Assembly (NCBI RefSeq): GCF_003018235.1
Contig: NZ_CP027437.1
Origin: Escherichia coli
Lineage (GTDB): Bacteria > Pseudomonadota > Gammaproteobacteria > Enterobacterales > Enterobacteriaceae
Direction: 5' to 3' (one strand)
DNA length: 64,000 nt
The notes under the pieces were generated by a model that did no database searches, was not told where the DNA came from, and saw only the letters and a program-made list of their open reading frames with translations. Position numbers and translations under genes: made by a program. Shown one piece after another: positions 4,300 through 12,260 of the stretch (position 1 is its first letter; every line of letters begins with the position of its first letter).

Positions 4300-4455
4300 C
4301 CGCTTATTCTCAGGGCGGGGCGAAATTCCCCACCGGCGGTAAATCAACTCAGTTGAAAGCCCGCGAGCGCTTTGGGTGCGAACTCAAAGGACAGCAGATC
4401 CGGTGTAATTCCGGGGCCGACGGTTAGAGTCCGGATGGGAGAGAGTAACGATTCT
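4300..4455 (+). ncRNA. FMN riboswitch (RFN element) in the ribB leader
   Basis: Conserved RFN motifs GGGGCGAAATTCCCCACCGGCGGTAAA ... AGCCCGCGAGCGC ... GGACAGCAGATCCGGTGTAATTCCGGGGCCGACGGTTAGAGTCCGGATGGGAGAGAGT directly upstream of ribB. Confidence 0.85.
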
Positions 4456-4553: not shown

Positions 4554-5207
4554 ATGAATCAGACGCTACTTTCCTCTTTTGGTACGCCTTTCGAACGTGT
4601 TGAAAATGCACTGGCTGCGCTGCGTGAAGGACGCGGTGTAATGGTGCTTGATGATGAAGACCGTGAAAACGAAGGCGATATGATCTTCCCGGCAGAAACC
4701 ATGACCGTTGAGCAGATGGCGCTGACCATTCGCCACGGTAGCGGTATTGTTTGCCTGTGCATTACTGAAGATCGCCGTAAACAACTCGATCTGCCAATGA
4801 TGGTAGAAAATAACACCAGCGCCTATGGCACCGGTTTTACCGTGACCATTGAAGCGGCTGAAGGTGTGACTACCGGTGTTTCTGCCGCTGACCGTATTAC
4901 GACCGTTCGCGCAGCGATTGCCGATGGCGCAAAACCTTCTGATCTGAATCGCCCGGGCCACGTTTTCCCACTTCGCGCTCAGGCTGGTGGTGTACTGACG
5001 CGTGGCGGCCATACTGAAGCGACTATTGATCTGATGACGCTGGCAGGCTTTAAACCGGCTGGTGTGCTGTGTGAGCTGACTAATGACGATGGTACGATGG
5101 CGCGTGCGCCAGAGTGCATTGAGTTTGCCAATAAACACAATATGGCGCTCGTGACTATTGAAGACCTGGTGGCTTATCGTCAGGCACATGAGCGTAAAGC
5201 CAGCTGA
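4554..5207 (+). CDS. ribB: RibB, 3,4-dihydroxy-2-butanone 4-phosphate synthase
   Basis: 217-aa ORF matching E. coli RibB; preceded by the FMN riboswitch. Confidence 0.95.
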
Positions 5208-5240
5208 AAATCGCTGCTTAATTTACTGTCTTAATCAAGA

Positions 5241-5275
5241 AACCGAAGTTGTAGCTGGCTTCGGTTTTTATTTTG
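5241..5275 (+). terminator. Rho-independent terminator after ribB
   Basis: Hairpin AACCGAAG...CTTCGGTT followed by TTTATTTTG. Confidence 0.6.
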
Positions 5276-5468
5276 CCCTGCTATGCAAGATGTTAATTCC
5301 GCTTCTCTTTCTATGAGAAAATTTCATTAATATCAGGCATTCTTTTTCATTATGATCAAAATCATATAATTGTTCCGTTATTATGCGACCATATGAATAT
5401 ATCCGAAAAAGGATATGTGAAATTTATGCGCTAAATGTTTAGTATTGTTAAATATTAAGGGTAAAAGG

Positions 5469-5639
5469 ATGTTTATCGCCTGGTACTGGATTGTATTGAT
5501 TGCTCTGGTTGTGGTGGGTTATTTCCTGCATTTGAAACGTTATTGTCGGGCGTTTCGCCAGGACAGAGACGCACTGCTTGAAGCGCGGAACAAATACTTA
5601 AACAGTACGAGAGAAGAGACAGCCGAAAAGGTAGAATAA
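5469..5639 (+). CDS. Small single-pass membrane protein (56 aa), uncharacterised
   Basis: ORF MFIAWYWIVLIALVVVGYFLHLKRY... with one TM helix and charged C-terminus; SD-like TAAGGG upstream; followed by hairpin 5657-5687 plus T-run. Confidence 0.45.
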   Translation: MFIAWYWIVLIALVVVGYFLHLKRYCRAFRQDRDALLEARNKYLNSTREETAEKVE

Positions 5640-5696
5640 GGCTTTCGTGAAGCTGGCAGAAGTTGTCCATGCGCTGGACAACTTCTGATGTTGTTT

Positions 5697-6470
5697 TTAA
5701 CCAATTCCCGCCGTTTGTAGCAGCACTAAACTGAATCCCATCACTGACATTCCACATAGTACGCCATAGCTGGGGTTATTATTAGGGTCAATCTCTTTGG
5801 CGAGCGGCATTAATTCATCAACCGAGAGCGCCACCATAATTCCTGCAACCGCCGCCATGATTGCCGCCATGACCACCGGGGAAATCATGCTACCGAGGAT
5901 TAACCACGCCAGCACACCACCAAGAATTTCTGCCAGTCCAGAAATCCCCGCCCAAAGAATCGCGGTGCGTTTAGACCCCGTTGCCGCGTAAACCGGGCCT
6001 GCAACCGCCAGACCTTCAGGAATATTGTGTAACGCAACGGCCAGTGCGATGCCAAAGCCCAGCTCCAGGTTGCTGCTCGCAGTGACAAAGGTGGCAATCC
6101 CTTCCGGGAAGTTATGCAGACTGATGCCGAGAGTGAGCAGAATGGCTGTGCGCTTGATCGATTTTGGCAACGGCTGCACCGATTTTTGCATTAAATCCTG
6201 CGGATGCGCATGTGGCAACATGCGGTCCAGGCCAAAATAGCCAAGCAGACCGAAGATAAACATTCCATAACCCAACACAGGCGACATTCCTTCGGCTGCT
6301 AGTGCGGCAGGAAGCATTTCCATTAATGAGATGAGCAACATGATCCCCGCCGCAAATCCTAGCGAAAACGCCAGTAAGCGGTTCGAGGGTTTTTGCCCGA
6401 GAACGCCGAGAAACGCGCCAATAAACGTGGCTGCCCCCGCCAGTATGGTCAGAATGAGAGGTACTGACAT
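5697..6470 (-). CDS. zupT: ZupT, ZIP-family zinc/divalent metal transporter
   Basis: 257-aa translation from [16 protein letters not shown]... matches ZupT; start at internal Met of the longer ORF. Confidence 0.9.
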
Positions 6471-10615: not shown

Positions 10616-11067
10616 GGATATATCTCCTTATATAACGCAAATATATAATAATGATGAATATCGACTGTTGAGAGGGTGCTAATAAATTCGTTGCGTGAAT
10701 ATAAATATTAATTCAATAAAGAGTGAGAATGCTTTTGTGTTTCTTTTAAATATGTTGTTATCCGGTGAAACAAATATTTATGTTTAATGGATAGTAGGGG
10801 GGCAATATATCATTCACAATGTTCAATATTGTGTAGTGTGATCTCTGCAACATTGTTTTTTAATTATTAAATTTAAATCTGGTGAGATAAAAGTAAAGTA
10901 TTTAAATAATATCAATTGGTTATGTCGTGAAGTGTTCACTTACTTTAATTACAATATCGCTTGCATATGACGATTTAACATTAAATTGAATGTTAATGTT
11001 AAATAAAGGTTGGATATGTATGTGTTTATATATTGATGGGAATTATGAATGGTGGATTATAAGAGAT

Positions 11068-11090
11068 TGCCCCGCTTATCGGGGCAATAT
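11068..11090 (-). terminator. Hairpin downstream of ygiC
   Basis: Stem TTGCCCCG / CGGGGCAA with 5-nt loop just past the ygiC stop. Confidence 0.4.
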
Positions 11091-11099
11091 TAAGCTGCA

Positions 11100-12260
11100 T
11101 TATTCAACAAAAATATGCGGATAAAACCGAGACATATCCTGGGTGATCAATGCACGGTCTTCACGAATGCCAATTCCGGCAGGTTGATCGTTCACCAGCC
11201 AGCTACCAATCAGCATATAGCTGTCGCCAAATTTCGGTAACGGGTGGAATTGCTGAACAATCATCCCTTCTTCGCCATACGGACCTTCCGCTGCTTCAAT
11301 GGTTTTGCCGTTCTCAATGATCGACACGTTTGCGCCTTCACGGGAGAAGATCGGTTTAACCACATATTTTTCCATTTGCGGATGATCATCTTCCGCAAAA
11401 TAAGCGGGCAGCAGGTTCGGGTGATTCGGGAACATCTCCCACAACAGCGGTAGAAGCGCTTTGTTGGAGATAATGCTCTTCCACGCCGGTTCCAGCCAGC
11501 GTACGCCTGCATCCTCCAGCTTGGTGGAGAACATCTCACGCAGCATAAATTCCCACGGATACAGCTTGAACAGGTTAGAAATCACCTGATCTTGTAAATC
11601 CGTGAACTGACCTTTTTCGCCTAAACCGATATCGTCGATGTAGAGGAATTCAGTAGCGATTTCAGCTTCTGTCGCGCAGTCCTGCAAATACTGGATGGTT
11701 CCGCGATCTTCCACCGTGTCGCGACAGCAGGTGAGATGCAGCAACTGGAAGCCATACTGTTCACGCAACTCGACAAAGCGATCGATTAGCTTTTCTTGCA
11801 GACTGTTAAACTGGTCGCTGCCTTCCGGCAGGTTACCGGCGTTAAGCTGATCTTCCAGCCAGATCCACTGAAAGAATGCGGCTTCATACAGTGACGTTGG
11901 CGTATCGGCGTTATTTTCCAGAAGTTTAGGTTCGCCAGTACCATCCCACGCCAGATCAAGACGCGAATAAAGCGATGGCTGGTGAGTCAGCCATGACTGG
12001 CGCACAAAACTCCAGGTGTGTTTTGGAATGCGGAATTTGGTCATCAGCTCATCGCTGGCGATCACTTTTTCAACCACTTTCAGGCACATCTGGTGCAGTT
12101 CGGCGGTGACTTCTTCCAGCTTTTCAACCTGGGCGAGGGTCAACTTGTAGTAAGCATCTTCACACCAGTACGGTTCGCCGTACATGGTGTGAAAATTGAA
12201 ACCGTATTCGTGGGCTTTTTCGCGCCAGTCCGGGCGCTCGGTAATACTGACTCTTTCCAT
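11100..12260 (-). CDS. ygiC: YgiC, glutathionylspermidine synthase-like ATP-grasp protein
   Basis: 386-aa ORF matching E. coli YgiC. Confidence 0.9.

Follow-up and report, generated by a model that had tools for sequence, protein, structure and literature searches.

The window, a 64,000-nt stretch of Escherichia coli contig NZ_CP027437.1 (assembly GCF_003018235.1), carries a short open reading frame between ribB and zupT that runs convergent with zupT. The original prediction read this frame as a small membrane protein gene of 56–64 codons with a plausible ribosome-binding site, a terminator-like hairpin of its own, and a metal transporter gene and a riboswitch-controlled gene for neighbours. 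The frame lies at 5445–5639 as predicted, and the neighbours are zupT and, behind an FMN riboswitch, ribB. The locus comprises:

4302–4450, FMN riboswitch preceding ribB (120.9 bits)
4554–5207, plus strand, ribB, located 5′ of yqiD
5445–5639, plus strand, open reading frame of 64 codons from a TTG, or 56 codons from the in-frame ATG at 5469
5456–5461, plus strand, Shine–Dalgarno sequence UAAGGG, 7 nt 5′ of the AUG at 5469, read from the sequence
5469–5639, plus strand, yqiD coding sequence of 56 codons and a TAA, product MFIAWYWIVLIALVVVGYFLHLKRYCRAFRQDRDALLEARNKYLNSTREETAEKVE; supported by the RefSeq and published Table 1 matches and by the open frame
5657–5698, plus strand, intrinsic terminator, a 13-bp stem–loop (5657–5687) and a T-rich run over the zupT stop codon
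5697–6470, minus strand, zupT, convergent with yqiD

The flagged frame is the already annotated E. coli gene yqiD (b4756), and the gene is not new. A megablast search of positions 5200–5720 against complete E. coli genomes matched window positions 5469–5639 to the RefSeq CDS ‘yqiD: protein YqiD’, whose MG1655 copy (b4756) lies at 3183381–3183551. The encoded protein is 100% identical to the RefSeq CDS product WP_000469266.1 / YP_009518818.1 and identical to the 56-aa entry in Table 1 of PMC6001520. As the window copy agrees with K-12 YqiD in its 56-aa sequence, in its position between ribB and zupT, and in strand and length, the two are the same gene; between positions 5340 and 5480, a single base differs between the window strain and MG1655. 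The hint that the gene might be unannotated therefore does not hold, because RefSeq already lists it. The annotation of yqiD dates from 2018.

Production of YqiD in E. coli K-12 is likewise published. VanOrsdel et al. (2018) detected the protein by immunoblot with an SPA tag at the chromosomal 3′ end, saw YqiD-SPA in aerated LB cultures, and reported a tetracycline ribosome-profiling signal (PMC6001520). The two experiments proposed with the original prediction, ribosome profiling and epitope tagging, have thus already been carried out, both with a positive outcome. The literature we found mentioning E. coli yqiD reports no function for it. Most other literature matches to ‘yqiD’ concern the B. 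subtilis ispA homologue, and the ‘YqiD’ of a tail-anchor paper seems to be a typographical error for YqjD.

Comparative analysis shows that yqiD codes for protein, is conserved and evolves under purifying selection. An orthologue scan with one genome per species yielded 30 loci from Escherichia, Citrobacter, Salmonella, Intestinirhabdus, an Enterobacter sp., Phytobacter and Kosakonia, and three further loci brought the set to 33. The yqiD frame is open in 33/33 genomes across the seven enterobacterial genera, starting with ATG in 32 and with GTG in one (Kosakonia cowanii, locus L035), while each of the remaining five frames is closed in at least 31 of the 33. The pooled dN/dS is 0.14 (Nei–Gojobori); codons 23–43 show saturated synonymous sites (pS 0.80) against a pN of 0.12. 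Of 5426 complete E. coli genomes, 5424 carry the locus, each as a single copy. The two comparative checks suggested beforehand, frame conservation across Enterobacteriaceae and dN/dS, thus agree with the published immunoblot and profiling signal that the small membrane protein gene is real and translated. Two antisense frames on the minus strand, of 94 aa (5473–5757) and 54 aa (5540–5704), were considered and set aside, as they are closed in almost all orthologous loci.

The family to which YqiD belongs is small. A word-index search returned 108 relatives in Escherichia, Citrobacter and Salmonella, and a profile search of 1.84 billion representative proteins gave only 25 matches at E ≤ 0.001, those with an organism name coming from Kosakonia, Phytobacter, Enterobacter spp. 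and Atlantibacter. All clear profile matches are short proteins in which an N-terminal helix precedes (K/R)(R/H)xx(R/K)A(F/Y)R(Q/H)(D/E)R(D/E)A(L/V). YqiD itself carries the MFIAWYW... N-terminal helix and the motif K-R-x-C-R-A-F-R-Q-D-R-D-A-L, which occupy invariant or near-invariant columns of our family alignment (A2). Sequence searches of Pfam, NCBIfam and the PDB with YqiD gave nothing above threshold and no related solved structure. The label ‘DUF4051’ attached to some relatives comes from UniRef and NCBI names alone; neither YqiD nor 19 relatives matched a DUF4051 model in the Pfam copy searched, even at E ≤ 10. Other weak matches were rejected. DUF2621 scored 19.8 bits against a cut-off of 27.7 and was matched by just 3 of the 19 relatives, and NF038143 scored 18.2 bits against a cut-off of 50; these, together with matches to DUF4381 and ResB, reflect a composition of transmembrane segment plus charged helix. 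Some relatives carry the JGI label ‘cytochrome c biogenesis protein ResB’, probably through the same compositional artefact.

YqiD divides into three segments:

5472–5534, plus strand, codons 2–22, transmembrane helix (hydropathy and AlphaFold2 helix; dN/dS 0.16)
5535–5597, plus strand, codons 23–43, conserved juxtamembrane segment KRYCRAFRQDRDALLEARNKY with the family signature
5598–5636, plus strand, codons 44–56, charged and variable C-terminal tail (dN/dS 0.46)

The mean Kyte–Doolittle hydropathy of residues 1–19 is 2.33, and AlphaFold2, run on a 19-sequence alignment, models one continuous helix over residues 2–55, with pLDDT of 83–87 in the transmembrane part. The net charge of residues 23–37 is +3, and the remainder of the tail is mixed or acidic. 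The single transmembrane helix and charged C-terminal tail foreseen for the protein are both recovered, and the sequence predicts a 56-residue, all-helical, single-pass inner-membrane protein. Its transmembrane helix begins at residue 2, and because the basic cluster KRYCRAFR directly follows the helix on its C-terminal side, the positive-inside rule predicts a periplasmic N terminus and a cytoplasmic tail of 34 residues. K23, R24, A28, R30, D32, R33, D34, A35 and L36 are invariant in the family alignment, and the juxtamembrane motif is still present in distant relatives (P0112–P0118). The tail differs between genera in both sequence and length, and about 18% of E. coli genomes encode an alternative one. 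From this pattern, the constrained part of YqiD appears to be the helix and the K-R-x-C-R-A-F-R-Q-D-R-D-A-L motif, with a distal tail that evolves freely; the functional surface would then comprise the helix and the R/D-rich juxtamembrane segment, and the tail may be dispensable or adaptive.

Downstream of yqiD, the hairpin at 5657–5687 forms a 13-bp stem (6 GC pairs) with a 5-nt loop (MFE −24.8 kcal/mol, z = −4.2), and none of 200 shuffled sequences folds as well. It is followed by ATGTTGTTTTT, and the T-run extends to 5698, overlapping the zupT stop codon (the complement of 5697–5699). Both the hairpin with its T-run and the overlap with the zupT 3′ end had been foreseen. Other Escherichia keep the stem with compensatory changes (CAGAAG...CTTCTG versus CAGATG...CATCTG), and most Citrobacter and Salmonella have a different strong hairpin in the same place; the hairpin is missing where the yqiD and zupT stop codons lie just 9–22 nt apart. 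On the minus strand, the hairpin stands 9 nt after the zupT stop with no U-run behind it. As judged from these sequence features, the hairpin is a canonical terminator for yqiD and, for want of a minus-strand U-run, at best a 3′ stabiliser for zupT. It would close the yqiD unit back-to-back with the 3′ end of zupT.

Upstream of yqiD, four elements outline a candidate promoter and leader:

5352–5365, no strand assigned, FNR-type palindrome ATGATCAAAATCAT (aTGAT-N4-ATCAt), centre 5358.5, proposed activator site
5384–5392, plus strand, predicted extended −10 element, with TG at 5384–5385, one base, and the hexamer GACCAT at 5387–5392
5399–5468, plus strand, predicted 5′ UTR of 70 nt from a putative transcription start at about 5399–5400, AU-rich and highly conserved
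5346–5359, minus strand, overlapping FNR site of Myers et al., TTGATCATAATGAA (PatSer 12.32; Table S6 of PMC3688515)

The inner 14-mer of the palindrome, ATGAT-CAAA-ATCAT, is an FNR-type inverted repeat. Scored with a position weight matrix built from the 62 other ChIP-validated FNR sites of Table S6 (PMC3688515), whose own scores are 11.0–21.0, ATGATCAAAATCAT reaches 12.4 bits and ranks second in the 64-kb window (about 64,000 positions), and the overlapping Myers site reaches 10.95 bits. The second half of the latter (TTCAT, 5346–5350) varies between species, and of the two sites only 5352–5365 is conserved. The sequence ATGAT[CT][AG]AAATCAT occurs 108.5–111.5 nt from the ATG in 28/28 Escherichia, Citrobacter, Salmonella and Intestinirhabdus loci. 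When 14 species are aligned, upstream conservation begins abruptly at the near-invariant TATGATCAAAATCATA (5351–5366) and runs on through the TG, the nAnnAT hexamer and most of the leader, with T5384, G5385, A5391 and T5392 invariant and A5388 found in all but one species. Palindrome and extended −10 keep the same distance in every locus, Enterobacter kpr-6 among them; in Kosakonia and Phytobacter, the palindrome is degenerate (4–8 bits). About 18% of E. coli genomes carry a divergent yqiD allele, and there, DNA homology with the window starts exactly at the palindrome.

Placing the transcription start 7 nt after the −10 hexamer puts the palindrome centre at −40.5 or −41.5, a geometry that rests on the predicted −10 element because the start is derived from the hexamer. 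An FNR box at −41.5 is the arrangement of class II FNR-dependent promoters, among them the FNR-activated narG, dmsA and yfiD promoters. The yqiD promoter likewise has a 14-bp repeat with a TGAT-N4-ATCA core, a predicted centre at about −41 and a weak or absent −35 element; it differs from them in half-sites that open with A, not T, and in having a predicted transcription start.

This region has been found occupied in vivo. Myers et al. (2013) reported an FNR ChIP-seq and ChIP-chip peak ‘5′ of zupT/ribB’ at 3181647 (U00096.2; Table S5), called by MOSAiCS, NCIS, CisGenome and CMARRT, and the predicted FNR site TTGATCATAATGAA at 3181683 (U00096.2; Table S6) coincides with a ChIP peak (PMC3688515). 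A sigma-70 peak, ‘end of zupT/ribB’, was recorded at 3181649 (Table S2), its signal being 395 with oxygen and 1002 without (adjusted p = 6.7e-83; PMC3688515). Mapped through MG1655, both peaks come to lie on the predicted extended −10, at window positions 5393–5396 (sigma-70 at about 5393–5394, FNR at about 5395). They stand about 5 nt from the predicted transcription start at about 5399, which corresponds to MG1655 3183621 on the minus strand. In Table S9, the summit is given as 3181575, 72 bp off the Table S5 value, and the target is listed as ‘Unknown’, in the class without FNR-dependent expression change (PMC3688515). FNR peaks in the same study also adjoin the small-protein genes ynhF, blr and yncL (PMC3688515). 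In vivo FNR occupancy and higher sigma-70 without oxygen (PMC3688515) thus add to the likeness between the yqiD site and class II FNR promoters.

Because a conserved palindrome lies about 41 bp before the predicted start and the FNR and sigma-70 ChIP peaks coincide there, yqiD is probably activated by FNR, and it is probably the missing target of the unassigned ‘zupT/ribB’ peak of Myers et al. The ‘no change’ class of that peak can be ascribed to the fact that no gene was annotated there in 2013; yqiD is not in the 2013 expression tables and was unannotated when the fnr transcriptomes were analysed. We found no report of FNR-dependent yqiD expression in the literature and no paper with both ‘yqiD’ and ‘FNR’, and yqiD does not appear in the accessible part of the supplement to a 2023 fnr RNA-seq paper. 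In a 2025 preprint, the yqiD upstream region drives a GFP reporter, and cis-variants affect its activity. The proposed expression unit would begin with a class II promoter dependent on FNR (box centre 5358.5, extended −10 element 5384–5392, start near 5399) and continue through the 70-nt leader to the UAAGGG and the AUG at 5469, with FNR raising yqiD transcription when oxygen is low. Expression is not strictly anaerobic, as YqiD-SPA was seen in aerated LB. Taken together, a known gene, yqiD, encoding a single-pass protein, read from a putative class II FNR promoter and ended by a terminator common with the zupT 3′ end, is the best explanation of the locus, and we regard it as likely.

The leader itself offered few further elements. 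Its stretch at 5416–5468 is nearly identical across three genera. A stem–loop UAUCC...GGAUA (5400–5415) was rejected, as the C. freundii group does not keep its pairing and Salmonella keeps it only in part; some Citrobacter carry compensatory-looking changes in it. A CsrA-like motif at the AUG was also discarded, with GGA changed to GAA in the C. freundii group. Both strands of the intergenic region 5208–5800 gave sub-threshold matches only, and no Rfam family above threshold.

The palindrome could instead serve CRP or another CRP/FNR-family protein, in which case yqiD would answer mainly to carbon source and the FNR ChIP signal would be incidental. The CRP consensus is TGTGA-N6-TCACA, and the 16-mer TATGATCAAAATCATA fits it at 4/5 positions per half. 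Both half-sites start with A and not with the consensus T of FNR, so that the site also resembles a CRP site (TaTGA-N6-TCAtA) and the discriminating base matches neither factor, FNR sites having T and CRP sites G. The assignment of the peak to the class without FNR-dependent expression change (PMC3688515) and the presence of YqiD in aerated LB would also fit such a regulator. However, 5 of the 62 validated FNR sites likewise begin with ATGA, the four peak callers agree independently on FNR occupancy, and sigma-70 occupancy is 2.5-fold higher anaerobically (PMC3688515); the ‘no change’ class reflects only that no gene was annotated there. We therefore consider regulation mainly by CRP or a relative unlikely, and retain FNR as the probable activator.

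The position of yqiD raises the question of ZupT. Convergence with zupT is seen in the window, in each of the 30 species loci and in L001, L002, L035 and L038, and the stop codons of the two genes lie 9–74 nt apart in 32/32 loci of the ribB–zupT lineage. By comparison, ribB is directly upstream of yqiD in only 18 of 30 loci, the others carrying inserted DNA such as the fimbrial operon in L002. YqiD might be, as the original prediction hinted for the neighbouring transporter, a dedicated modulator; it would bind ZupT and adjust the uptake of Zn, Fe, Co and Mn, perhaps in anaerobic conditions with their abundant Fe2+. Convergence that persists even where inserted DNA has displaced ribB and the 3′ hairpin region common to both genes speak for such a role, and small single-pass regulators of transporters are well known, as in the pairs AcrZ–AcrB, MgtS–MgtA/PitA and KdpF–KdpABC. 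YqiD resembles AcrZ, MgtS and KdpF in size (below about 60 aa), in its single helix and in having its gene beside a transporter gene, and its predicted N-out/C-in topology is that of AcrZ. In contrast to those systems, yqiD is convergent with zupT, has its own predicted promoter and terminator, is not co-transcribed with it and appears to be regulated unrelatedly; Pfam, NCBIfam and PDB searches revealed no homology of YqiD to AcrZ, MgtS or KdpF.

Several observations weigh against a dedicated ZupT modulator. The genes do not form one operon, and zupT has been reported to be constitutive, whereas yqiD appears regulated. With only 25 representative clusters in the YqiD family, zupT must occur widely without yqiD. 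A divergent family branch (P0113, P0115) adjoins dsbL/assT/ygiC instead of zupT, and in one locus (L041), ribB and zupT abut with 63 nt and no yqiD between them, the family member lying 3 kb away beside dsbL. A ZupT(1–72)::YqiD fusion (P0123) was found once, on a 2-kb assembly contig; it and a UbiK-N::YqiD-C fusion (P0103) were rejected as Rosetta-stone evidence, being truncated chimeras on assembly contigs of 0.7–2 kb. As the genes are convergent, a family branch lies away from zupT and zupT is constitutive, ZupT modulation amounts to a positional guess, and we judge it improbable.

The start of YqiD also has to be weighed between the ATG at 5469 and the TTG at 5445, from which translation would yield 64 residues with an N-terminal MLNIKGKR extension. 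This extension would place positive charge N-terminally and could reverse the topology. The frame is open from 5445, the 24 nt upstream of the ATG are highly conserved and in frame with an ATG in many Citrobacter, and metagenome gene callers often give 65–74-aa versions. However, no purine-rich or Shine–Dalgarno-like motif lies 5′ of the TTG, while the UAAGGG is ideally spaced for the ATG at 5469, in keeping with the plausible ribosome-binding site first proposed. Its AAGGG is kept in 26 of 27 Escherichia, Citrobacter, Salmonella and Intestinirhabdus species loci (AAGG in E. albertii), and more distant genera have GAGGAAGG or AAGGAAGG in its place. The conserved upstream bases correspond to this Shine–Dalgarno sequence and the leader, and are retained in the paralogue too. 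Phytobacter has an in-frame TAA 3 codons 5′ of the ATG, and the longer TTG form is therefore not the conserved product. RefSeq and PMC6001520 both give the 56-aa form, and EcoCyc and VanOrsdel et al. also use the 56-codon form. Since the TTG is without a purine-rich motif and Phytobacter has the upstream stop, the 56-codon form from the ATG at 5469 is, on sequence grounds, the real yqiD product, and initiation at the TTG is very unlikely.

A type I toxin-like hydrophobic peptide, repressed by antisense transcripts that arise from the 3′ end of convergent zupT, would share with YqiD its short length, a hydrophobic helix at the N terminus and convergent 3′ ends that overlap, but it is extremely unlikely given a syntenic, single-copy core gene (5424/5426 E. 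coli genomes) under purifying selection, tagged YqiD that accumulates in normally growing cells (PMC6001520), the lack of a known antitoxin or sRNA family on either strand of 5208–5800 (Rfam) and an overlap with zupT confined to the terminator.

The proposed FNR control brings to mind the oxygen-regulated small subunits of cytochrome bd oxidases, CydX, AppX and YnhF/CydH. Like YqiD, these are shorter than 60 aa and have one transmembrane helix. They show no sequence similarity to YqiD, however, and do not have its long conserved cytoplasmic segment; the genes of CydX and AppX sit inside their partner's operon, in contrast to the monocistronic yqiD. By analogy with such proteins, YqiD may use its helix and juxtamembrane segment to bind a larger protein of the inner membrane, with ZupT a speculative candidate partner by position. 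A bolder reading, in which YqiD would be an FNR-induced low-oxygen accessory subunit whose R/D-rich juxtamembrane helix binds and retunes an inner-membrane machine, strikes us as quite unlikely; the same holds for its extension, with ZupT the candidate, to a link between oxygen sensing and Zn/Fe/Mn/Co uptake in the Escherichia–Citrobacter–Salmonella clade. Of this reading, the FNR part alone draws support from the analysis, and does so indirectly.

The rediscovery of yqiD adds nothing in itself, because the gene is catalogued and its translation proven. The one new point is the probable FNR assignment, a small increment. Its value lies in offering a plausible target, yqiD, for an FNR ChIP peak left ‘Unknown’ by Myers et al. 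in 2013 (PMC3688515), and it suggests oxygen limitation as a growth condition in which to seek the function of YqiD. Were ZupT or an anaerobic membrane complex found to be modulated by YqiD, the few single-helix regulators of transporters and respiratory enzymes would gain another member.

In a comparison of Escherichia, Citrobacter and Salmonella, the sequence immediately preceding yqiD is better conserved than the synonymous sites of the coding sequence itself, and contains a repeated GTTAAAT motif. This leader may act as a second promoter or in the control of translation. At the start codon lies GUAAAAGGAUGU, similar to the CsrA-binding consensus; in the Citrobacter freundii group, its GGA is replaced by GAA. 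The leader and the features accompanying the upstream gene ribB are as follows.

5416-5468, + strand: yqiD leader, conserved across genera
4302-4450, + strand: FMN riboswitch (RF00050, 120.9 bits)
5206-5276, + strand: ribB 3′ UTR with its terminator (T-run after the hairpin AAACCGAAG...CTTCGGTTT)
~4562, ribB start region: weak FNR peak (Myers et al. 2013, Table S5)

The riboswitch upstream of ribB was confirmed as a full-length match to its family. The ribB 3′ UTR and terminator also align over the full length of the Rfam sRNA family STnc240, at a sub-threshold score (27 bits, E = 0.22; gathering score 55). The weak FNR peak, labelled ribB and placed at 3182480 (U00096.2), was called by one algorithm only, and the same study lists ribB (0.46) and yqiC (0.42) among the genes whose expression differs between growth with and without oxygen (Table S12; PMC3688515).

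A divergent form of yqiD, annotated solely as "hypothetical protein", occurs in approximately 990 of the 5424 complete E. coli genomes; it shows 80–90% nucleotide and 66–69% amino-acid identity, and its product ends in ...AARSKLDKRSDKE(L/V)FEKHQ. Homology to the window begins exactly at the FNR-like palindrome (5352-5365) and stops around codon 36. Upstream of this allele in the locus L002 lies a fimbrial operon, not ribB.

5351-5576 (L002 3001-3289): divergent yqiD allele region, by homology to the window
10990-11124, + strand: decayed 44-codon ORF (tblastn E = 0.11)

The YqiD family has a second branch (P0113, P0115 and P0117), which adjoins dsbL/assT/ygiC in other Enterobacteriaceae (L036, L039 and L041) and shares the TGTTAAAnTTTAAGG leader with yqiD. 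At the syntenic position, the window holds just the decayed ORF, MLMLNKGWICMCLYIDGNYEWWIIRDCPAYRG..., which is probably a pseudogene remnant of a second-branch paralogue.

Two chimeric ORFs from metagenome and SRA assembly contigs join ZupT(1-72) to YqiD(13-end) (P0123, L033 1499-1876) and the UbiK N terminus to the YqiD C terminus (P0103). Given the gene orientations, both fusions would need inversions. Their most likely origin is an artefact of assembly, and they do not count as support for a functional link.

Santiago et al. 2017 (PMC5570504) report, from qRT-PCR in enteroaggregative E. coli (EAEC) strain 042, that loss of aar raises expression of the hypothetical "DUF4051 family" gene orf3334. 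Because the DUF4051/YqiD family is present as a single copy in E. coli genomes, orf3334 is probably the yqiD locus of this strain.
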